This document shows positions 8,242 to 49,163 of a stretch of 64,000 nucleotides of DNA, in pieces. How positions within the stretch are numbered: the stretch's first letter is position 1; each line of letters starts with the position of its first letter. The position numbers were made by a program, and so were the translations under genes. This DNA is from Escherichia phage FL18, in sequence record PP400780; one strand, written 5' to 3'. The notes below the pieces were generated by a model. It had not been told where the DNA came from, did no database searches, and worked only from the letters and a program-made list of their open reading frames with translations.

Positions 8242-8715
8242 ATGTTATTATCAGGCGCAAAATATAAAGAAGAAAAACAAAAATTTTATGATGCACAGAA
8301 TGGTAAGTGTCCTATTTGCCACCGTGAATTAGACCCTGATGTTCAAGGTAACCATCTTGACCACGACCACGAATTAAACGGGCCAAAAGCCGGTAGAGTT
8401 CGTGGATTACTCTGTAATCTGTGCAACGCAGCAGAAGGTCAAATGAAGCATAAGTTCAACCGTTCCGGTCTTAAAGGACGTGGTGTCGACTACCTCGAAT
8501 GGCTTGAAGCTCTTCTTGTTTATTTGAAACAAGATTATTCTGATAATAATATCCATCCTAATTTTGTTCCAGACAAAACTAAAGAGTTCTCAAGACTAGG
8601 TAAAGAGGAAATGATGGCTGAGATGCTTCAAAGAGGATTTGAATATAATGAATCTGACACCAAAACACAGTTAATAACTTCATTTAAGAAGCAGCTTAGA
8701 AAGAGTTTAAAATGA
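8242..8715 (+). CDS. 49: endonuclease VII (Holliday junction resolvase)
   Basis: 157 aa, near-identical to recalled T4 gp49 (MLL.GK.YKEEKQKFYDAQNGKC ... HLDHDHELNGPKAG). Confidence 0.9.
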   Translation: MLLSGAKYKEEKQKFYDAQNGKCPICHRELDPDVQGNHLDHDHELNGPKAGRVRGLLCNLCNAAEGQMKHKFNRSGLKGRGVDYLEWLEALLVYLKQDYSDNNIHPNFVPDKTKEFSRLGKEEMMAEMLQRGFEYNESDTKTQLITSFKKQLRKSLK

Positions 8716-9380
8716 ATGTAGTATATAAACTATCATTTATTAGTAGAATTAATGCTAAAACCCCGCCATATTATTATATTGGAAGTAAAACCAATTGCAC
8801 TTTTGACGGAACGAATATTATTGATAAAAATGGTAAATTTTATTATTCGTCTTCGTCATCTTCCGAATTTCAAAAAGCTTTGTTGAAAGAAACACCGAAA
8901 GTTGAAATATTATATTTTCAATTAGTCGGAGATGAACAAATAACTAGCATTGAAGCTGAATTTCAAAAGAATATAGAAAAAGATATATGGAATAAAGAGT
9001 ATTTTAATTTAGCATATGCTAATGGTCAATTTACAACGTACGGTGTTTCTCCTTCTAAAGAAACTAGAGAAAAGCAATCAATAACCATGATTAAAAGAAA
9101 TCGTAATAAAGGTAAAAATCATGGATTTTATGGAAAGCATCATACTAATTTAGCCAGAAAGAAAATATCAGAAGCTTCTAAAAAATACTGGAAAGAAAAT
9201 CCACATCATGGATTTTCGCACACAAAGGAAGCTAAAATTAAAATTGGAATTTCATCTTCTATCAGGCATAAAGGAAGTGGAAATCCGATGTACGGCGTAA
9301 AACCTTGGAAAACTCCTAGCGTTGTTCCATGGAATTTAGGTAAAATGAAAGAAATGGTAAAACGAGTAAAACATGCATAG
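8712..9380 (+). CDS. Seg-like homing endonuclease (GIY-YIG-like N-terminus, NUMOD-like repeats)
   Basis: VYKLSF ... YYYIGSK motif; repeated K/R-rich helix motifs; GNPMYG; paralogous to ORF 18918..19451. Confidence 0.55.
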   Translation: MNVVYKLSFISRINAKTPPYYYIGSKTNCTFDGTNIIDKNGKFYYSSSSSSEFQKALLKETPKVEILYFQLVGDEQITSIEAEFQKNIEKDIWNKEYFNLAYANGQFTTYGVSPSKETREKQSITMIKRNRNKGKNHGFYGKHHTNLARKKISEASKKYWKENPHHGFSHTKEAKIKIGISSSIRHKGSGNPMYGVKPWKTPSVVPWNLGKMKEMVKRVKHA

Positions 9381-10203
9381 GTATTATATAATTTATAAAA
9401 TAACAAATATAATTAATTCAAAGGAATATATCGGTGCGCATAGCACCGATAACATAAATGATGGTTATATGGGATCAGGAACATTGATTCGTGCCGCTTT
9501 ATTAAAATATGGTAGAAAAAATTTTAATAAAGAAATTTTACATGTTTTTGATAATGAAAAACAAATGTATGATAAAGAAGCTGAACTCGTAACCGAAGAG
9601 TATTGTCTAAAAGAAAATACATATAATATTAAACCTGGTGGAAAAGGTGGAACTGCCTATGAACAGACACTTGAACATCGCCGCAAAAATAGTTTAGCAA
9701 ATAAAGGTAAAAAGAGAACAGAAGAAACTAAAATAGCTATTTCACGTGCTTTAAAGAAATATAAACGTACGCCAGAGCATCAAGCAAATTTAAATAAAGC
9801 CGTAAGCATAGCTATGAAGCGAAAAGATGTTAGAAGTAAATTAGCTGGAGAGCGGTCTGAGAAAGATAAATTACCTATATCAAACGGTGTTAAAAAATAT
9901 TACAATTCTTTGAGTGAAGAAGAACGCGAACTTCATCGCAAGCGAATTATTGAAGGTAAAAAGAATTCTCCCATGTCATTGGAATCTAGACAAAAGCTTT
10001 CAAAAGCTTTAAAAGGACTTCAAGTTGGTTCAAAAAATCCAATGTATGGAAAAATTTCTCCAACTAGCAAAACCGTTTCAGTTGACGGTATTAAATATGA
10101 TTCAATTAAAAAGTGCTCAAATGCCATAAAAGTTTCTAGACATCTTATACTAAAACGCTGTAATTCTACTGATGAAGCTTGGAAAAATTGGATATTATTA
10201 TGA
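9373..10203 (+). CDS. GIY-YIG homing endonuclease (Seg-like)
   Basis: YYIIYKITNIINSKEYIGAHST (GIY ... YIG), downstream N/E residues, NUMOD3-like repeats (TEETKIAISRALK; SLESRQKLSKALKG; NPMYGK). Confidence 0.75.
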   Translation: MHRYYIIYKITNIINSKEYIGAHSTDNINDGYMGSGTLIRAALLKYGRKNFNKEILHVFDNEKQMYDKEAELVTEEYCLKENTYNIKPGGKGGTAYEQTLEHRRKNSLANKGKKRTEETKIAISRALKKYKRTPEHQANLNKAVSIAMKRKDVRSKLAGERSEKDKLPISNGVKKYYNSLSEEERELHRKRIIEGKKNSPMSLESRQKLSKALKGLQVGSKNPMYGKISPTSKTVSVDGIKYDSIKKCSNAIKVSRHLILKRCNSTDEAWKNWILL

Positions 10204-10670
10204 ATTATGACAGAATATACCCGTGTTGCTTTGTGAATGGCCCTGGATGCAGGGTCGTTCTTTTCGTTACAGGTTGTTTGCATAAATGCGAAGGGTGTTA
10301 TAATAAATCAACATGGAATGCTAGAAATGGTGTTCCATTCACTGGTGAAACACTAGAACAATTAATTGAATGTTTGAATAATGATTATATAGAAGGATTG
10401 ACTATAACCGGAGGTGACCCTCTTTATCCTGATAACAGAGACGTGATTCACTCTGTGGTTCAAACTATTAAAAATCTTTATCCCAATAAAAGCATTTGGT
10501 TGTGGACAGGATATAAGTTTGAAGATATTAAACAACTAGAAATGCTTAAATATGTTGATGTTATTATTGATGGGAAGTATGAGAAAAATCTTCCGACTAA
10601 AAAGCTGTGGCGAGGATCAGATAATCAGCGACTTTGGTCAAATACCGATGTGGTGTGGAAACATGATTAA
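10200..10670 (+). CDS. nrdG: anaerobic ribonucleotide reductase activating protein (radical SAM)
   Basis: 156 aa from ATG at 10200 (MNYDRIYPCCFVNGPGCRVVLFVTGCLHKCEGCYN); matches recalled T4 NrdG. Confidence 0.85.
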   Translation: MNYDRIYPCCFVNGPGCRVVLFVTGCLHKCEGCYNKSTWNARNGVPFTGETLEQLIECLNNDYIEGLTITGGDPLYPDNRDVIHSVVQTIKNLYPNKSIWLWTGYKFEDIKQLEMLKYVDVIIDGKYEKNLPTKKLWRGSDNQRLWSNTDVVWKHD

Positions 10671-16564: not shown

Positions 16565-18249
16565 AATCATTTAAATTAAATCGTGTTCGTTATCAAAACA
16601 TCATGTCGGTAGGTGGGAATCCTATTGATATCCAATTAGATAAAGTCCAAAAGACATTAATCACCGGTAAAAATGGCGGCGGTAAATCTACGATGTTAGA
16701 AGCCGTTACTTTCGGACTTTTCGGTAAACCATTTCGTGATGTTAAGAAAGGACAAATCATTAATAGCACGAACAAGAAAGAGCTCTTAGTTGAGCTTTGG
16801 ATGGAATTCGATGATAAAAAATACTTCATTAAACGTGGCCAAAAGCCCAATATTTTCGAAATCTCCGTTGACGGTGTTCGTCTCGATGAATCTGCCAGCA
16901 GTCGTGACTTCCAAGAAGAATTTGAACGTAGCATCGGAATGTCATACGCGTCTTTTAAACAGATCGTTGTGCTTGGGACGGCAGGGTATACCCCTTTCAT
17001 GGCTCTTAGCACCCCTGCTCGTAGAAAACTTGTCGAAGACCTTTTAGAAGTCGGCACACTCGCTGAAATGGATAAAATCAATAAGTCTCAAGTTCGCGAA
17101 CTTAATTCTCAGGGACAAGTTCTTGATGCCAAGAAAGATGGTGTTATCCAACAAATTAAGATTTATAACGAGAATATCGAACGTCAAAAGAAATTATCTG
17201 GTGATAATGTAGCGCGTCTACAGAATATGTATGACGACCTAGCCAAAGAAGCTCGTTCATTAAAAGCAGAAATCGAAGAAGCTAATGAGCGACTACTTAA
17301 TATCGTTCTTGATGAAGACCCTACTGAGGCATTCAACAAGATAGGACAAGAAGCATTCTTGATTAAATCTAAAATCGACTCATACAACAAAGTTATTAAG
17401 ATGTATCATGACGGTGGCACATGTCCTACTTGTGCATCACAATTGCACCAGGGTGACCCTATTGTCTCTAAGATTACCGATAAGCTTCATGAATGTAATC
17501 ACTCATTCGAGCAACTTACCTGTCACAGAGATAATCTGAGTGTCCTAGTTGATGAATATAGAGCTAATGTTAAGACTAAGCAGGACCTTGCATCTGATAT
17601 TCGTACCAAGAAACAAGCAATGATTGCCACTATTGATAAAGCTAAGAAAGTTAAAGCTGCAATAGAACAAGCCTCGGCGGAATTTATCGACCATGCTGAT
17701 GAGGTAGCTTTGCTTCAAAAAGAACTTGATAAAATCATTAAAACAAAATCAGATATCGTTCTTGAAAAATATCATCGTGGTATTATCACAGATATGTTAA
17801 AAGATTCTGGTATTAAAGGTGCTATCATTAAAAAATATGTGCCTCTGTTTAATAAGCAGATTAACCATTATCTTAAAATCATGGAAGCCGATTACGTGTT
17901 TTCTATTGACGAAGAATTCAATGAATCTATAAAATCACGTGGCCGTGAAGAGTTCAGTTATGCTTCATTTAGTCAAGGTGAAAAGGCACGTATCGATATC
18001 GCATTGTTGTTTACATGGCGAGATATTGCTGAAAAGGTTTCTGGTGTTAAAATCAACACTCTAATTCTTGATGAGGTTTTTGATGGTGCTGTCGATTCTG
18101 AGGCTGTTAAGGCTATAGATACCATCCTTGGTAGTTTACAAAATACTAACGTGTTCATTATCTCTCATCGAGACCATGACCCTCAACGTTATGGACAACA
18201 TCTTCAAATGAGCAAAGTTGGACGATTTACTGTGATGACTGTCTCATAA
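16561..18249 (+). CDS. 46: recombination endonuclease subunit gp46 (Rad50/SbcC-like ATPase)
   Basis: 562 aa; Walker A GKNGGGKST, zinc hook CPTC, near-identical to recalled T4 gp46. Confidence 0.95.
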   Translation: MKSFKLNRVRYQNIMSVGGNPIDIQLDKVQKTLITGKNGGGKSTMLEAVTFGLFGKPFRDVKKGQIINSTNKKELLVELWMEFDDKKYFIKRGQKPNIFEISVDGVRLDESASSRDFQEEFERSIGMSYASFKQIVVLGTAGYTPFMALSTPARRKLVEDLLEVGTLAEMDKINKSQVRELNSQGQVLDAKKDGVIQQIKIYNENIERQKKLSGDNVARLQNMYDDLAKEARSLKAEIEEANERLLNIVLDEDPTEAFNKIGQEAFLIKSKIDSYNKVIKMYHDGGTCPTCASQLHQGDPIVSKITDKLHECNHSFEQLTCHRDNLSVLVDEYRANVKTKQDLASDIRTKKQAMIATIDKAKKVKAAIEQASAEFIDHADEVALLQKELDKIIKTKSDIVLEKYHRGIITDMLKDSGIKGAIIKKYVPLFNKQINHYLKIMEADYVFSIDEEFNESIKSRGREEFSYASFSQGEKARIDIALLFTWRDIAEKVSGVKINTLILDEVFDGAVDSEAVKAIDTILGSLQNTNVFIISHRDHDPQRYGQHLQMSKVGRFTVMTVS

Positions 18250-18285
18250 ACGCTTTAACATGATGTGGTTATAATGACCACATCA
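18250..18285 (+). promoter_or_regulatory. promoter with -10 TATAAT inside inverted repeat GATGTGG / CCACATC; MotA-box-like CGCTTTA upstream
   Basis: cgctttaacatgatgtggttataatgaccacatc. Confidence 0.45.
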
Positions 18286-18291
18286 AATTAA

Positions 18292-18492
18292 ATGGAGAAC
18301 AACATGGAGTATTCAACCGGTCAACATCTTCTTGTTGTCCCTGAAATTAAAAAATATGTTTTGACCAATACGTTTTCAGGTGAAGAACATATTGTTACTG
18401 AACAAATGCTCAAATCTGCTTTTAAAGATGAGTATAATAAAATAATGTCTAATCGCAATTCCGCATGGACAGTTACCGACTTCTACGAATAA
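18292..18492 (+). CDS. hypothetical protein (66 aa)
   Basis: ORF-track entry. Confidence 0.45.
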   Translation: MENNMEYSTGQHLLVVPEIKKYVLTNTFSGEEHIVTEQMLKSAFKDEYNKIMSNRNSAWTVTDFYE

Positions 18493-18504
18493 GAGAGAAA
18501 TAAT

Positions 18505-18921
18505 ATGTTTACTACTGTTAAAGGTTTCACTGCTGCTGATCTGAAAGTTACTTCTATCCGTACTGACGCTAACCCACATAACCATAATCGTGTTCGTAAA
18601 GCATGGGTCCTGCATTGTGATGAAGCAAGTGCTAAAAAACTCCAATCTTTGCCACAAGAAACTCGTTTTATGATTTATGGTTTTATTGATAACGATGTAT
18701 CTGATATGTGGATTCATCTGATGCGTAAGCACTATAAAGATTCTATCGAAGCAGGTGCTAAAATCGTTCTTGATAAAGACGGTTCTGAGCGTCTGGAAGA
18801 TTTCTACTGTGTTGATGCCGACGAACAACTAATTGCAGCTGGCGAAATTGTTGCTTCTAAAATTCCAGAATATATTGAATCACTGCCTGAAGCTATTAAA
18901 AAGCAGATGGTTGCTGCTTGA
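18505..18921 (+). CDS. hypothetical protein (138 aa); candidate RpbA-like by synteny
   Basis: sits where T4 has rpbA between 46 and 45; no sequence confirmation. Confidence 0.4.
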   Translation: MFTTVKGFTAADLKVTSIRTDANPHNHNRVRKAWVLHCDEASAKKLQSLPQETRFMIYGFIDNDVSDMWIHLMRKHYKDSIEAGAKIVLDKDGSERLEDFYCVDADEQLIAAGEIVASKIPEYIESLPEAIKKQMVAA

Positions 18922-19451
18922 TAATTATGAATTTAATATATCTTATAACCTTTTATAATCGTGAGATTAAAAATGAATACCCGTGTTATTATATAGGTTC
19001 TAAAGTTTCGTGTCATTTTAATGGAAAGGATATTATTGAAGATTCTACCGGTAAAATATATACCGGTAGTGTTAATTCCTCGTATTCTCCTTTATATAAC
19101 AGATTAATAGACCAAGGCGAATATTCTGTAAAAATTTTAGGCGAAACCACATTAGACCCTAGAAGAATAGAAAGACTATTCCAACTCAATGTTAAAGCCG
19201 TTTCAAATGAAAAATATTTTAATAAGGCTTATGCTAACGAGAAGTCTAGAATATCAGCTAAAGGATATGCACCGTATAAAAATTTAAAAACAGGCAAAAT
19301 AGTAAAACTTTCTAAAAACGAAATAAACGAAGATTACGTCGGTGTTAGAAAAAATTGCAAATTGTCGGAGAATCATTTAAACGCAATTAGAGAATTTCAA
19401 AAAAACATATTGGACCAAAGAACGAAGAGAGAAAGTTTCTATTCGTTCTAA
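18918..19451 (+). CDS. Seg-like homing endonuclease N-terminal module (paralog of 8712..9380)
   Basis: IYLITFYNREIKNEYPCYYIGSK ... KYFNKAYANEK parallels VYKLSFISRINAKTPPYYYIGSK ... EYFNLAYANG. Confidence 0.5.
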   Translation: MIIMNLIYLITFYNREIKNEYPCYYIGSKVSCHFNGKDIIEDSTGKIYTGSVNSSYSPLYNRLIDQGEYSVKILGETTLDPRRIERLFQLNVKAVSNEKYFNKAYANEKSRISAKGYAPYKNLKTGKIVKLSKNEINEDYVGVRKNCKLSENHLNAIREFQKNILDQRTKRESFYSF

Positions 19452-19455
19452 AAAA

Positions 19456-19818
19456 ATGTTTAACGATAGAGATTTTGCTTTAAAATTTAAAGATATAATG
19501 AATTCTCCTAATGTTAAAGATAAAATAAAAATATCTAAAACATTGTATTGGTCTAAACCTGAAAATAGAGCAAAGGCCTCTATCGCAGCTTCGAAAAGAA
19601 ATGCAACCAAAGAATTTAAGGATAAATTCAGAAAATCTAAAGCTAGAGGTACATGGATATTTCATGAACAAAAATTAAAGGAATTGTGGATTGCTTTAGG
19701 AAAACCAAGTTATATTACATTTAGAAAACATGCAATTCAGCATGGTTTTAATGATGAATCATACCAAGGTGCTATCCGGTCTTGGACAAATTATTATGCT
19801 AATAGGAAACCTAAATGA
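19456..19818 (+). CDS. basic DNA-binding-like protein; possible C-terminal part of split homing endonuclease
   Basis: starts 4 nt after the stop of 18918..19451 in a different frame; K/R-rich. Confidence 0.4.
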   Translation: MFNDRDFALKFKDIMNSPNVKDKIKISKTLYWSKPENRAKASIAASKRNATKEFKDKFRKSKARGTWIFHEQKLKELWIALGKPSYITFRKHAIQHGFNDESYQGAIRSWTNYYANRKPK

Positions 19819-20501
19819 AACTTAGCCGTGAAACCGTAAATATTCTGAAAAACTTCGCTTCTATTAACTCTGGCATTCTGCTGAGTCAAGGTAAATTTAT
19901 TATGACTCGTGCAGTTAATGGCACCACTTATGCGGAAGCAAATATCTCTGATGAAATTGATTTTGACGTAGCACTTTATGATTTGAATAGCTTCTTAAGC
20001 ATTTTGAGTCTAGTGTCTGATGATGCTGAAATTTCAATGCACACTGATGGCAATATTAAAATTGCAGATACACGTTCCACAGTTTATTGGCCTGCCGCTG
20101 ACAAGAGCACCATTGTTTTTCCTAATAAGCCAATTCAATTCCCAGTGGCTTCTGTGATTACTGAAATTAAAGCTGAAGACCTTCAACAATTGCTTCGAGT
20201 TTCACGTGGACTTCAGATTGATACAATTGCTATTACAAATAAAGATGGTAAAATTGTTATCAATGGCTATAATAAAGTTGAAGATTCCGGACTAACTCGT
20301 CCTAAGTATTCTTTGACTCTTACTGATTATGACGGTTCTAATAACTTTAACTTCGTAATCAATATGGCTAATATGAAAATCCAGCCAGGTAACTATAAAG
20401 TAATGTTGTGGGGAGCTGGTGATAAAGTTGCAGCTAAGTTTGAAAGCTCTCAAGTAAGTTATGTTATTGCGATGGAAGCCGATTCTACTCACGACTTCTA
20501 A
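19815..20501 (+). CDS. 45: sliding clamp gp45
   Basis: 228 aa, near-identical to recalled T4 gp45 (MKLS..T...LKNFA.INSGI ... EADSTHDF). Confidence 0.95.
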   Translation: MKLSRETVNILKNFASINSGILLSQGKFIMTRAVNGTTYAEANISDEIDFDVALYDLNSFLSILSLVSDDAEISMHTDGNIKIADTRSTVYWPAADKSTIVFPNKPIQFPVASVITEIKAEDLQQLLRVSRGLQIDTIAITNKDGKIVINGYNKVEDSGLTRPKYSLTLTDYDGSNNFNFVINMANMKIQPGNYKVMLWGAGDKVAAKFESSQVSYVIAMEADSTHDF

Positions 20502-20534
20502 GTCAAAGCTTTACGTTTATTGTGATACGATTAT

Positions 20535-20582
20535 GGAGGAGAAATCCTCCAGTTTAATGATAATGAGGAAAATTACATGATT
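20535..20582 (+). promoter_or_regulatory. intercistronic hairpin (GGAGGA-GAAA-TCCTCC) and putative RegA operator at gene 44 start
   Basis: hairpin 20535-20550; sequence AAAATTACATGATTACT around the gene 44 ATG resembles the T4 gene 44 RegA target. Confidence 0.35.
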
Positions 20583-21539
20583 ACTATCAATTCCAAAGAA
20601 CACATTCTAGAACAGAAATATCGTCCTTCTTCCATTGACGAATGTATTCTGCCTGCGTATGACCATGAAACATTCAAGTCTTTAGTATCTAAAGGAAAAC
20701 TTCCTCATATTATTTTGCACTCTCCATCTCCTGGTACCGGTAAAACAACCGTAGCAAAAGCATTATGTAATGATATCAATGCCGAAATGATGTTCGTCAA
20801 CGGTTCTGATTGTAAGATTGATTTTGTGCGTGGTCCATTAACTGCATTCGCTCGTTCAGTCTCAATGGAAGGCAAGCCTAAAGTTATTGTTATTGATGAA
20901 TTTGACCGTAGTGGCCTCGCCGAATCACAACGGCACCTTCGTACATTCATGGAAGAATTCTCTAGTAACTGTTCTATTATTATTACTGCCAACAACATCG
21001 ATGGAATTATTGAACCATTACGTAGTCGTTGTCGAGTTATCGAATTCGGACGTCCAACCGAAGAAGATAAAATCTCAATGATGAAGAAAATGATTCATCG
21101 TATGGTTGAAATCTGTAAGAACGAAAATATCGAAATCGCTGATATGAAAGTTGTTGCAGCTCTGGTTAAAAAGAACTTCCCAGACTTTCGTCGTACAATT
21201 GGTCAATTAGACCAGTACTCGTCTAAAGGTGTTCTTGATGCGGGTATTTTGTCTATCGTAACTAATGACCGTGGCACAGTCTCTGATGTTATCGAAGCAA
21301 TGAAGAACAAAGATATCAAACAGCTTCGTGCATTAGCTCCAAAATATGCCGCTGATTATTCATGGTTCATCGATAAATTAGTTTCAGAATGTTATGACCA
21401 AGTTGCGCCTGGTAAAAGTATTATTTCGCTTTACGAAATTGCAGGTGAAAATAATAAGTTTCATGGACTAGCTAGTAATATTGAATTACATGTTATGTAT
21501 ATGCTTCTTCAACTGACTTGTGAATTGACTTGGAAATAA
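20577..21539 (+). CDS. 44: clamp loader large subunit gp44 (AAA+)
   Basis: 320 aa; Walker [11 protein letters not shown]; near-identical to recalled T4 gp44. Confidence 0.95.
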
Positions 21540-26125: not shown

Positions 26126-27811
26126 ATGAAAAAAGCTGTTATTCTTGGTGCTGGACTGGCAACTCGTTTGTATCCAATAACGCATCATATTCCTAAGGTG
26201 CTTGTTAACTATAAACAAGATACTATTCTGAGCAATTTGTATACAATTTATTCTGACCTTGGCGCAGATGAAATTATTGTAGTAGTTCATTCAAAATTTG
26301 CTGAAACTGTTCGAGCTTATTGTGAACAAGAAGGGTTCAATGTGACTATTCGTACAGTTGATGAAGCGTATGGTTCTGCTTATGCTCTTGCTAAATTACA
26401 CAAAGATTTAGACGGCCATAATGTAATTGTTAACTGGTGTGATATTATTCCTGATTTTGGTTCATGGTCTTGGAATGTTAACGCAATCTATGTTAAGGGT
26501 GACGAATGTCGATATAATTTCGACGGTGAAAATATCACTAACGTAGGTTCAACAGGTGGTAATGTTGTAGGAATTTATCAGTTCAAAGACTGGGAATTCT
26601 ATATGGGTTCTACTGATGAGGAAATTCATGAATACTGCAAAGGACGTGATTTCGTAGAATTCCTTTACGGCAGCGCATTCAATAAATCAGAGCTTATGAA
26701 TCTAATTGATTTAGGTGATATGCCTAAACTTGAAAAAGCTCATGAAGTTCGTGAACTTAATCGTAGTTTTAATGCAGTTGAAATTGGTGAAGAAACTGTA
26801 ACTAAATTCGCATTAACCGAACAGGGTCGAGCTCTTCAGAAAGATGAGATTTCGTGGTATCTTAAAGTGAAATCAGATTCAGTTCCTCAGTTAGTTTCTG
26901 TTAATGAAAATAACTTTGAAATGGAACGCATTAAAGGTAAGCCTGCATTTGAATATATTAAATCCAAATCAAGTCTTGCTCGTCCACAAATTGTTGATGC
27001 AATTTTAGATGCACTGAAATTCAGCACAGACACTTATTTTGTAAGTCCTGAAACTGTTCGTCGTGATTTCACTAAAGAATTCTATACGAAAGTTATTGAT
27101 CGTTGTGAAAGCATTCAACCATTGATTGATTCATTTGGTAAAATCACACATGTGAACTACACTAAGATTGGACGTCTGAAGCCAATGCTGAAACAAGCTT
27201 TAGAACACCTCATTCGTTATCATAACCGTTCTCAGGGACAGTACTCTGTTATTCACGGTGACCCGAACTTCAGTAATACTATGATTACTGATAATGGCGA
27301 AGTCAAGTTTATCGACCCTCGTGGATATTTTGGTGAAACCAAGATTTACGGGCCAAAATTGTACGATGAAGCTAAAGTGCTTTATGCTGTTTCAGGTTAT
27401 GATGAATTCAATGCTAATCCGACCTGGGGGCAGTTTACTATTGATGAAACAACTTGTAATGTGACTATTAACATCAATCCATTAGTTTACAAATATAGAA
27501 AGATGAGTTCGTTTAACGAGTATCATCATTTGGCAGTGGCAATTATCTGGATTGCATTAGGCGGTTATTTCAAGAATAATCCACTTAAAGCGGTAGCCGC
27601 ATATTATAAAGGTATGGAACTTCTGACTAAGCAATTACGTAACATGGGCCGTGTACTTCAGGACGGCTCTATTAGTTATGACGTAGCAGAACCTGTAACG
27701 GCTACTCTGATTACAAAAAATCCTGGTAAATGGGTACTAACTGATAAAGAAACTGGTGTTTCCTATCGTCCAATCGGTGGCGATATCACTCATCAATGGG
27801 AACGAATCTAA
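26126..27811 (+). CDS. bifunctional sugar-1-phosphate nucleotidyltransferase / kinase-like fusion protein
   Basis: N-terminus MKKAVILGAGLATRLYPITHHIPKVLV (sugar nucleotidyltransferase G-rich loop); C-terminal region has protein-kinase-like HGDPNFSNTMI (catalytic loop) and FIDPRGYFG (DFG-like) as in APH/choline-kinase-type small-molecule kinases. Confidence 0.65.
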   Translation: MKKAVILGAGLATRLYPITHHIPKVLVNYKQDTILSNLYTIYSDLGADEIIVVVHSKFAETVRAYCEQEGFNVTIRTVDEAYGSAYALAKLHKDLDGHNVIVNWCDIIPDFGSWSWNVNAIYVKGDECRYNFDGENITNVGSTGGNVVGIYQFKDWEFYMGSTDEEIHEYCKGRDFVEFLYGSAFNKSELMNLIDLGDMPKLEKAHEVRELNRSFNAVEIGEETVTKFALTEQGRALQKDEISWYLKVKSDSVPQLVSVNENNFEMERIKGKPAFEYIKSKSSLARPQIVDAILDALKFSTDTYFVSPETVRRDFTKEFYTKVIDRCESIQPLIDSFGKITHVNYTKIGRLKPMLKQALEHLIRYHNRSQGQYSVIHGDPNFSNTMITDNGEVKFIDPRGYFGETKIYGPKLYDEAKVLYAVSGYDEFNANPTWGQFTIDETTCNVTININPLVYKYRKMSSFNEYHHLAVAIIWIALGGYFKNNPLKAVAAYYKGMELLTKQLRNMGRVLQDGSISYDVAEPVTATLITKNPGKWVLTDKETGVSYRPIGGDITHQWERI

Positions 27812-28197
27812 TGCACCGTGTAGAAAACATGCTTAATCTTTGTTTTGATGTCGATGATTGTATAACAGAGTGGAATAACAATCGTGATTACGTGAACTTC
27901 AAACCTGACGTCGAAATGGTGTCTGCCATTAATGCCCTGTATGATGCAGGGCATACCATAACGCTTTACACTGCTCGCGGTATGAAGTCAGTAGGTCCTG
28001 GACGTATAGCAATTGACATTCTCCCAAGTCTGATTCAGAACTTGGAAAACATTGGTTTGAAGTACCATAATTTGCTAACACATAAACCAGTATATGATTG
28101 GATTATCGACGACAAAGCTATGCGTCCTGACGAATTCAAAGCTCTTATGAATAAAGGCGAATTCGAAACATTTAAATCGTATAAACCGAATCTATAA
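27811..28197 (+). CDS. HAD-superfamily phosphatase-like protein (start uncertain: 27796, 27811 or 27829)
   Basis: N-terminal LCFDVDDCIT (motif I-like DxD), TITLYTARG (motif II-like), WIIDDK (motif IV-like). Confidence 0.5.
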   Translation: MHRVENMLNLCFDVDDCITEWNNNRDYVNFKPDVEMVSAINALYDAGHTITLYTARGMKSVGPGRIAIDILPSLIQNLENIGLKYHNLLTHKPVYDWIIDDKAMRPDEFKALMNKGEFETFKSYKPNL

Positions 28198-47874: not shown

Positions 47875-48294
47875 ATGAATATTGTAAATCTCTCTACAGG
47901 TGATTACGTATATGTATCTGTTGCTTCTCGCTCTAAAGTTGCCGGGAAGTTGGTTGAAGTTCTTTCTGTGAGTGATCCGGTTTTTGGACGTAACGAAGTT
48001 AAAGTTCGTGATGCTGATGGTAACATTGGTTACGTTAAAAGCCAATTCATTGAACCAGAAGAAAAAGCGTTCAAATGGGGACTATGCAGATCAGTTTCTG
48101 TTGAAAAAGACCATGAATTCACTATTGCTGCGGCAACTGATGGAACACCGTGGAAAACTAAGCAAATCGCCGGATTTATTAGCGACCGTTGGGTAGAAGA
48201 TGGTGTTAAGCTTTATAACATCGTTTTCGCTGGTCAGTTCATGGTAGTTCCTGAATTCCAAATTAAAAAATATAGCCCAGCTGCTTTCGCATAA
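47875..48294 (+). CDS. hypothetical protein, member 3 of tandem paralog family
   Basis: C-terminus DRWVEDGVKLYNIVFAGQFMVVP; N-terminal VSVASRSKVAGKLVEV similar to member 2. Confidence 0.55.
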   Translation: MNIVNLSTGDYVYVSVASRSKVAGKLVEVLSVSDPVFGRNEVKVRDADGNIGYVKSQFIEPEEKAFKWGLCRSVSVEKDHEFTIAAATDGTPWKTKQIAGFISDRWVEDGVKLYNIVFAGQFMVVPEFQIKKYSPAAFA

Positions 48295-48296
48295 AA

Positions 48297-48348
48297 TTGT
48301 TTACTTCTCCTCTGGTTTTGATATTATAACCATATCAACCAGAGGAGA
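48297..48348 (+). promoter_or_regulatory. T4-type early promoter with -10 flanked by perfect 11-bp inverted repeat (CTCCTCTGGTT / AACCAGAGGAG)
   Basis: ttgtttacttctcctctggttttgatattataaccatatcaaccagaggag; 3' arm contains the SD. Confidence 0.55.
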
Positions 48349-48353
48349 ATAAT

Positions 48354-48878
48354 ATGTTAGTTTACCGCGTAGAACGTAGTTTTTGTACTCAACGTGAATC
48401 ATTACCAGGAATTGCTATCGAAGACGGTAAAGCCGTCAGAATTTGGGAAACCTCTTGGAATAAAGAACCTCGCTCGCCATACGGTTGGTCGGGTGCCGAC
48501 AACTCTGAAGAAACATGGGAGTTCCTTGATAAACATGGAATAATCTCAGGTAACTTCTACCATCACGGCGACAACTATAATGTCCCTAATCGTCCTACAG
48601 TAAATGAAGACAAACTCCTTGAACAAAATATCTTAAGATACTATAGAATTGAGCACGCATTTGAATTGAGTGAAGATTGGGCTCAAGGGTTCTATTTTGG
48701 ATTTGAAAGTGTTGACGCGGTTTATGCATGGTTTGATGACCAGGTGGATGTTGAACTCTTGAAAGCTAAAGGATACTACATCGCGGTCTATGAAGCACCT
48801 GATTTCATCCTCGGAAGTTGTCAATTAATGTTTAGACGTTCATTGGCAGAACAAGTTGATTTTATTTTGCTAAAATGA
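48354..48878 (+). CDS. hypothetical protein (174 aa)
   Basis: ORF-track entry. Confidence 0.5.
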   Translation: MLVYRVERSFCTQRESLPGIAIEDGKAVRIWETSWNKEPRSPYGWSGADNSEETWEFLDKHGIISGNFYHHGDNYNVPNRPTVNEDKLLEQNILRYYRIEHAFELSEDWAQGFYFGFESVDAVYAWFDDQVDVELLKAKGYYIAVYEAPDFILGSCQLMFRRSLAEQVDFILLK

Positions 48879-48879
48879 T

Positions 48880-48929
48880 GTACAACAACTATGGTCTATG
48901 ATACTATAGACCTATCAAAACAAGAGGAG
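48880..48929 (+). promoter_or_regulatory. T4-type early promoter with stem-loop (GGTCTA / TAGACC) and conserved leader
   Basis: tgatgtacaacaactatggtctatgatactatagacctatcaaaacaagaggag. Confidence 0.5.
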
Positions 48930-48935
48930 AATATT

Positions 48936-49163
48936 ATGAAACGTCAAATCATTAAAAACGTAACTACTGATTCAAACATCGATGAGTTTGAAGATGTTCT
49001 GTTTAATCCTGATTTAGTTGTTGTACAGAAAAACTGGACCGAATTTTTATGCTACACCGAAGTGGTTTACGTTTACGAAAAACTCGGCGATGAAATGCCT
49101 ATCTATGGTATCTTCCGTGAAATCACTGAAAATGGTACAACTTATTGGAAGGAAACTTACTAA
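48936..49163 (+). CDS. hypothetical protein (75 aa)
   Basis: ATG at 48936 after GAGGAG SD; ORF-track start 48891 lies in the promoter. Confidence 0.5.

Follow-up and report, generated by a model that had tools for sequence, protein, structure and literature searches.

What lies between rpbA and gene 45 in Escherichia phage FL18? In the stretch of this genome that was analyzed (64,000 nucleotides of record PP400780; hereafter, the window), two open reading frames, ORF1 and ORF2, occupy this interval, and the ORF list gives them the coordinates and the 4-nt spacing (19452-19455) that the initial annotation had reported (Table 1). ORF2 had been described there as a basic ORF in a different frame, which it is: its frame is offset by +1 from that of ORF1 and its product has a pI of 10.2, with 28 Lys + Arg residues against 11 Asp + Glu. 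Such a pair could be what a frameshift has left of a Seg-like homing endonuclease gene, or a naturally two-part gene. Our analysis favors the former: the two ORFs are very probably the pieces of a single gene for a free-standing homing endonuclease (SegG type, a variant of the GIY-YIG class), which was inserted between rpbA and gene 45 and broken by an extra A.

Where does this gene begin and end? As listed, ORF1 starts with a TTG that overlaps the rpbA stop codon; the homologs begin with MNL(I/V)Y and therefore the true start is the ATG at 18927, which yields a 174-aa ORF1. Inspection of the upstream sequence found no Shine-Dalgarno element ahead of this ATG, so translation is probably coupled to that of rpbA. 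The T4 late-promoter consensus, TATAAATA, does not occur within 18300-20000, and σ70-like promoter matches around the locus are fewer than expected from shuffled sequences. At the other end, the TGA stop of ORF2 overlaps the gene 45 start codon (ATGA).

Table 1. Features of the rpbA/gene 45 interval and the paralogous locus; positions are those of the window.
Feature	Position	Strand	Description
rpbA	18505-18921		Upstream neighbor of the endonuclease gene
Left junction of the insert	18915..18926	+	End codons and stop of rpbA, 5 nt, endonuclease ATG; compared with the empty site of PhAPEC2
ORF1, as listed	18918-19451	+	177 aa from TTG (program-made ORF list)
SegG-like free-standing homing endonuclease gene, most likely a pseudogene	18927..19818	+	892 nt in the window; 891 nt (296 aa) in intact relatives
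ORF1, from the real start	18927..19451	+	Residues 1-159 and an out-of-frame 15-aa tail, NILDQRTKRESFYSF; TAA stop
A7 homopolymer, proposed frameshift site	19399..19405	+	A6 in each of the eight carriers that fall outside the window/JM17 lineage
Second A7 run	19450..19456	+	AV115, four additional As (A11 allele); G2285, one A fewer, independently
ORF2	19456-19818	+	120 aa; endonuclease residues 177-296; ATG is internal Met177
A5 run	19527..19531	+	AV111, one A fewer
Gene 45 (sliding clamp, essential)	19815-20501		Downstream neighbor of the endonuclease gene
Recoded gene 45 5' end (right junction)	19815..19850	+	MKLSRETVNILK; MKLSKDTIAILK in Mosigvirus genomes that lack the endonuclease gene
Paralogous SegG-like gene beside gene 49	8712..9380	+	222 aa here; 273-aa version in JM17 and AV116

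The N-terminal part of the encoded protein resembles SegG of phage T4, a verified free-standing GIY-YIG homing endonuclease whose gene sits in the 59/32 interval and whose target is gene 32 (PMC2988022). The N-terminal 137 residues match PHROG 7504, "homing endonuclease" (E 2.6e-16); BLASTP aligns T4 SegG with this region at 38% identity over 138 aa (E 4e-16); a tblastn search of 50,697 phage records, with the N-terminal domain as the query, finds the annotated segG genes of T4, RB3, RB6, and PST; and the matches among viral structure predictions in BFVD include some labeled SegG or Gp32.1, the best at E 6e-11. The N-terminal ~100 residues conform to the α/β fold of GIY-YIG nucleases, and both tyrosine motifs are present, as L-I-Y5 and Y21-Y22-I-G24-S-K. 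Nine residues (Y5, Y22, G24, S25, K26, Y45, S48, E82, and N99) are invariant across a 26-sequence alignment and fit the GIY…YIG…E…N catalytic pattern; judging by their order and spacing, E82 (within RRIERLF) and N99 (within YFN) would be the counterparts of I-TevI E75 and N90. At the position of I-TevI R27, the 26 sequences have no invariant Arg; all of them have K26, and at least 90% have R12.

If the protein is a GIY-YIG nuclease, why do domain profiles miss it? Neither the intact protein nor ORF1 nor ORF2 has a match in Pfam (PF01541/PF19835) or NCBIfam. T4 SegG likewise has no Pfam match, and since SegG is a validated enzyme, the blank result marks a blind spot of the profiles and does not exclude membership. 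Profile-sequence comparisons (hhalign) with I-TevI and with the GIY-YIG gene at 9373-10203 of the window aligned a NUMOD3-like linker alone and not the catalytic domain; a PDB-sequence profile search gave a single weak match, to the I-TevI DNA-binding domain (E 0.011). ORF1 spans the GIY-YIG catalytic domain, a β linker, and the first helix, and the remaining C-terminal half is predicted to form basic helical repeats followed by a terminal three-helix, HTH-like module; by analogy with I-TevI and the Seg proteins, this half is presumed to bind DNA.

That the two ORFs are parts of one gene is seen from the relatives in which this gene is whole. A single 891-nt ORF (296 aa) occupies the same place in AV116, AV109, AV114, AV118, and FL31, and on three metagenome contigs, too, the rpbA/gene 45 interval codes for the intact protein, so that eight of the 13 Mosigvirus-type copies carry the uninterrupted ORF. 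Three-frame translation of the window places the shift of the homologous frame, from 0 to +1, exactly at the A7 run, and a multiple alignment of 10 copies finds the extra A in the window and in phage JM17 only. The change from A6 to A7 is the sole frame-breaking difference: in silico removal of one A from the run restores a 296-aa protein. These results bear out the main reading of the initial annotation, a Seg-like homing endonuclease gene with a frameshift, and move the break, which had been suspected in the 4-nt gap or nearby (19440-19460), ~50 nt upstream. They also dismiss the possibility, raised at the same time, that the two ORFs are separately conserved in relatives: the other broken copies are broken elsewhere, and the ORF2 start codon is an internal Met codon of the intact gene.

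The likely course of events can be outlined. Replication slippage would have added one A to the A6 run. The frame of ORF1 now runs through 159 native residues and then 15 missense ones before it closes at 19451, and the C-terminal 120 residues persist only as a separate ORF that starts from Met177, with residues 160-176 absent from both products. With its nuclease and DNA-binding halves uncoupled, the frameshifted gene is most likely a non-functional pseudogene. Because the ORF2 start codon lies 4 nt past the ORF1 stop, termination-reinitiation could yield both fragments, and the split protein may keep residual activity.

How did the gene come to be at this place? The ~850-bp insert is present in nine of the 198 related phage records; the other 189 have only a 42-nt spacer between rpbA and gene 45. 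A scan of IMG/VR for further copies found none; in exact-product look-ups, ORF1 was in no other public assembly and ORF2 was in AV115 only. At the nucleotide level, 1.7 kb around the locus is 100% identical to Escherichia phage JM17 (Mosigvirus, Tevenvirinae; megablast); the window is itself from a Mosigvirus, a T4-like coliphage close to JM17 but distinct from it. Among carriers, the insert differs by 0-4 substitutions in 890 bp, less than its flanks (rpbA and genes 46, 45, and 44), which have diverged by 1-3%, and its GC content is 29%, compared with 37% in the flanks, as for a young insert of foreign base composition. Full-length orthologs that are 57-62% identical occupy the same junction in about 28 Tequatrovirus and Gaprivervirus genomes; nearly all of the orthologs in other genera, about 26, are plain single ORFs, and several database records already call them homing endonucleases. 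Between lineages, dN/dS is 0.13-0.23, which indicates that the intact protein has been under long-term purifying selection.

The insert is accompanied by a change in its neighbor. In the Mosigvirus carriers, gene 45 has 13 differences from non-carriers at nt 9-26, including a TCT-to-AGC switch between Ser codons, and is nearly unchanged over the following 370 nt; this recoded allele is confined to the nine carrier records. Tequatrovirus offers a parallel: between SHBML-50-1, which has the endonuclease gene, and T4, which lacks it, gene 45 shows 13 changes at nt 7-33 and few beyond. The recoded patch is probably either a cleavage-resistant version of the target site or donor DNA that was transferred along with the gene. 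Taken together, the distribution and the patch bear the signatures of a homing endonuclease with a predicted target at the rpbA/gene 45 junction, most likely within the first ~30 nt of gene 45.

T4 SegG, which cuts within the neighboring gene 32 and thereby brings about marker exclusion and co-conversion (PMC2988022), suggests how such an element would spread. In the intact 296-aa protein, an N-terminal GIY-YIG nuclease would be tethered to the basic helical DNA-binding C-terminus. During a mixed infection, the enzyme would cut genomes that lack its gene at or near the rpbA/gene 45 junction; repair off the endonuclease-positive genome would carry a copy of the gene, along with neighboring DNA, over to the genome that was cut, and the recoded 5' end of gene 45 would shield the carriers from their own enzyme.

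If the insertion has been maintained across genera, why is it broken in FL18? The lesion in the window has company. Differing homopolymer frameshifts in three other carriers, AV115, G2285, and AV111 (Table 1), imply that the gene broke repeatedly; the indels fall in its longest runs. Tequatrovirus copies have also been hit: in ESh24, a T6 run has grown to T7, and EC121 has a damaged 5' end. The Mosigvirus copies differ by four nonsynonymous and two synonymous substitutions, which is near the neutral expectation, but these are too few to test. We infer that homopolymer frameshifts have arisen independently at least four times in this young insertion, the lesion in the window among them, in line with the degeneration phase in the life cycle of a homing endonuclease. 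T-even replication is classically frameshift-prone in A-runs, as in the rII hot spots and the slippage model of Streisinger; such slippage, under selection that relaxed once the gene had invaded, accounts for the decay.

Before this history is accepted, one has to ask whether the extra A exists. A one-nucleotide change in homopolymer length is the classic type of sequencing or assembly error, all four disrupted Mosigvirus alleles differ in the lengths of A-runs alone, and the exact ORF1 product is absent from all other public assemblies; if the true run were A6, the gene would encode the intact 296-aa protein, and A7 would be a homopolymer miscall or the consensus of a mixed population. The genomes themselves make such an error unlikely. 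The genomes of the JM, FL, and AV phages come from Illumina MiSeq reads (2x250) and CLC assemblies (PMC12032242, PMC10844046); on this platform, used for JM17, errors in A6/A7 runs are rare, and A7 is common to two non-identical genomes, those of JM17 and the window, while FL31, from the same study as JM17, has A6. Over the 64 kb, the window and JM17 form a mosaic, which includes a gapless 14.3-kb block with 130 mismatches, found in patches; this block holds 17 runs of at least six identical bases and not one indel. The essential genes that flank the insert have 0 homopolymer indels in 3.8 kb across 10 genomes. The A7 frameshift is thus probably real. The window and JM17 also share a 3.3-kb tract that is 100% identical, which could be taken as a sign of homing after the frameshift; this idea was rejected, as identical blocks of 1-3.3 kb recur along the two genomes and shared ancestry is enough to account for the tract.

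A real frameshift need not be a dead end. The A-runs of the gene (A6, A6, A7, and A5 in ~180 nt) could be contingency tracts, in which replication slippage toggles the nuclease; from the A7-A11 alleles, slippage by RNA polymerase could provide a trickle of the full-length enzyme. The four independent tract changes in 13 near-identical copies would then reflect a selected, reversible switch that balances the gain from homing against the cost of a toxic nuclease or of disturbed gene 45 expression, and not a one-way decay. As a whole, this scheme has, in our judgment, only a slim chance of being correct.

A related proposal keeps the frameshift as it is and lets expression bypass it: a low level of full-length endonuclease would be made from A7 by RNA polymerase slippage (A7 read as A6 or A9) or by +1/-2 ribosomal frameshifting, throttling a toxic nuclease. 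The break does lie inside a slippery A7 run, and a hairpin (19419-19448) starts 14 nt downstream, in a 116-nt segment with z = -1.96; however, the spacing and stability of this hairpin are unremarkable. The repeated A-run changes, including the A11 allele of AV115, would favor transcriptional slippage, but efficient slippage is known for runs of about nine or more, and A7 is below this length. Tight down-regulation of phage homing endonuclease genes is well documented (PMC2988022), yet the arrangement seen in the window is shared with JM17 only and is otherwise unconserved, the majority of the Mosigvirus copies and nearly all orthologs being plain single ORFs. We consider such recoding very unlikely. 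Programmed -1 frameshifting on A_AAA_AAC, also considered, leads to the wrong frame; a +1 or -2 shift is required.

The last alternative, raised in the initial annotation, is that ORF1 and ORF2 form a naturally two-part gene whose nuclease and DNA-binding proteins act in trans, and it is scarcely credible: a start codon 4 nt past the ORF1 stop is compatible with translational coupling, and the gene is likewise split in two in AV115 and G2285, where ORF2 has the identical start, but residues 160-176 are lost, ORF2 has no upstream Shine-Dalgarno sequence, the specificity of I-TevI depends on covalent tethering of its two domains, and the break points vary among phages (A-runs at 19399, 19450, and, in AV111, 19527) and intact single ORFs, which are under purifying selection across genera, predominate.

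With one broken homing endonuclease gene as the preferred reading, how does it compare with known systems? The closest is T4 SegG (formerly gp32.1): the N-terminal ~135 aa are homologous and share the VY, YYIGSK, C.F.NG, ER, and YFN.YA motifs, both proteins are of the PHROG 7504 type and lack a Pfam match, and both genes are small, AT-rich cassettes directly upstream of an essential replication gene on the same strand. They differ in locus (59/32 for segG, rpbA/45 here), in size (210 versus 296 aa), and in the C-terminal half, which in SegG is unrelated to the basic helical repeats and HTH-like end found here; furthermore, the copy in the window is frameshifted. T4 SegG cuts its neighbor, gene 32; here, the neighbor, gene 45, has a recoded patch, and the target is deduced from the polymorphism pattern. 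I-TevI, from the T4 td intron, is more distant. It is intron-encoded and not free-standing, and the catalytic domains have no detectable sequence similarity; an equivalent of its R27 is not conserved in the present family, which has a β-hairpin insertion after the YIG motif. I-TevIII of T4 is reportedly defunct, an example of a degenerate homing endonuclease gene in a phage. As in genes of that type, the reading frame has been lost and the insertion site is still occupied; what sets the present case apart is a 1-nt homopolymer slip as the lesion, with several parallel, independent events in near-identical copies.

The gene is thus an ordinary member of a well-understood kind, the decaying mobile genes of T4-like phages, although a new and uncharacterized one, and it leaves the current understanding of homing endonucleases unchanged. 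What it adds is a site and a series. A search of the literature gave no specific account of an endonuclease at rpbA/gene 45, and the seg and mob loci listed for T4 do not include this junction (PMC2988022). Within the searched literature, then, the junction is an undescribed, putative homing site, at which diverged orthologs reside in three Tevenvirinae genera and whose likely target lies inside an essential sliding-clamp gene. The eight intact and five broken copies, with four different homopolymer slips, form a natural series, a snapshot of how fast decay proceeds after invasion, and supply matched alleles, predicted to be active and inactive, for work on marker exclusion. For annotation, the pairs of "hypothetical proteins" in JM17-like genomes, AV115, and G2285 should each be merged into one SegG-like homing endonuclease pseudogene.

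The window has a second gene of this type. As the initial annotation had it, ORF1 is paralogous to the N-terminal half of the 8712-9380 product: the two share YYIGSK, C.F.G, and (K/E)(E/K)YFN.AYAN, are 33% identical over 141 aa (BLASTP, E = 5e-13), and both match PHROG 7504. The suggestion that the two loci could recombine fared less well: their longest common DNA word is 12 nt, which leaves homologous recombination between the paralogs unsupported. The paralog, both here and in its 273-aa form, resembles the gene at rpbA/45 in its SegG-type N-terminal domain and in being an optional insertion beside a DNA-metabolism gene, but it has a NUMOD3-containing linker, resides at another locus (gene 49), and has negligible DNA similarity.

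The 222-aa product in the window has 97% identity with the first 92% of the 273-aa protein of JM17 and AV116, which runs on into an HTH-like C-terminus; compared with these phages, the 8712-9380 gene itself appears to be truncated at its C-terminal end. In the window, a classical GIY-YIG/NUMOD3 endonuclease gene (9373-10203) takes the place of the 3' end of this gene and of the entire nrdD, and it directly abuts nrdG. Further homing endonuclease genes are likewise present in some of these phages and absent from others.

Where did the homing endonuclease gene (HEG) between rpbA and gene 45, a frameshifted SegG-like pseudogene in the window, come from? In phages that carry an HEG at this site, the 5' end of gene 45 is recoded, and this recoded end (window 19815-19880) shares 82-84% identity over 62-66 nt with gene 45 of T4-like phages of Serratia, Erwinia, and Yersinia; it is less close, at about 76%, to the allele of Mosigvirus phages that lack the HEG. 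This points, tentatively, to another genus as the source of both the endonuclease cassette and the DNA at its junction.

The pseudogene lies within a 3.3-kb block (17705-21010) that is 100% identical to JM17, a close relative, while the adjoining segments differ by 1-2%. Further identical blocks of 1-2.4 kb are interspersed with divergent patches, an alternation showing fine-scale mosaic recombination among Mosigvirus genomes. Mismatches are very dense at the 3' end of gene 46 (window 18050-18190; about 55 in 140 nt) when the window and JM17 are compared with the group of AV116, AV109, FL31, and G2285; it might represent a further target-site or co-conversion tract.

Endonuclease genes also differ elsewhere (see table). 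JM17 has an extra gene of about 725 nt, annotated as a "putative GIY-YIG family homing endonuclease" (48195-48956 of its record), with no counterpart in the window at ~27807-27833; this is a further presence/absence difference in an HEG between otherwise 99%-identical genomes. In JM17 and AV116, gene 49 is followed by a 273-aa SegG-like gene, nrdD (1.8 kb), and nrdG, whereas in the window (8712-10670) it is followed by the SegG-like paralog, a GIY-YIG/NUMOD3 endonuclease gene, and, immediately after, nrdG. From these gene orders, the second endonuclease gene appears to stand in place of the 3' end of the first and all of nrdD; on the evidence of the window, the large subunit of the anaerobic ribonucleotide reductase may be missing from this phage.

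Endonuclease genes in the window and related loci
Feature	Size	Coordinates	Strand	Location
SegG-like paralog	222 aa	window 8712-9380	+	after gene 49
Classical GIY-YIG/NUMOD3 endonuclease gene		window 9373-10203		between SegG-like paralog and nrdG
Homing endonuclease gene	717 nt	608-1324 of FL31 and G2285 loci	minus	between gene 46 and 45.2

Two potential hairpins lie inside the pseudogene. A terminator scan picked up a perfect 9-bp inverted repeat at 19045-19069 (CTACCGGTA, a 7-nt loop, and TACCGGTAG), which covers the segment encoding the conserved STGKIYTGS and is followed by no T-run. The other, GAACGAAGAGAGAAAGUUUCUAUUCGUUC (19419-19448), is located exactly between the two A7 runs hit by indels; a 116-nt segment containing it folds at -18.1 kcal/mol (z = -1.96). 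This hairpin might promote replication slippage, or its position might be a coincidence.
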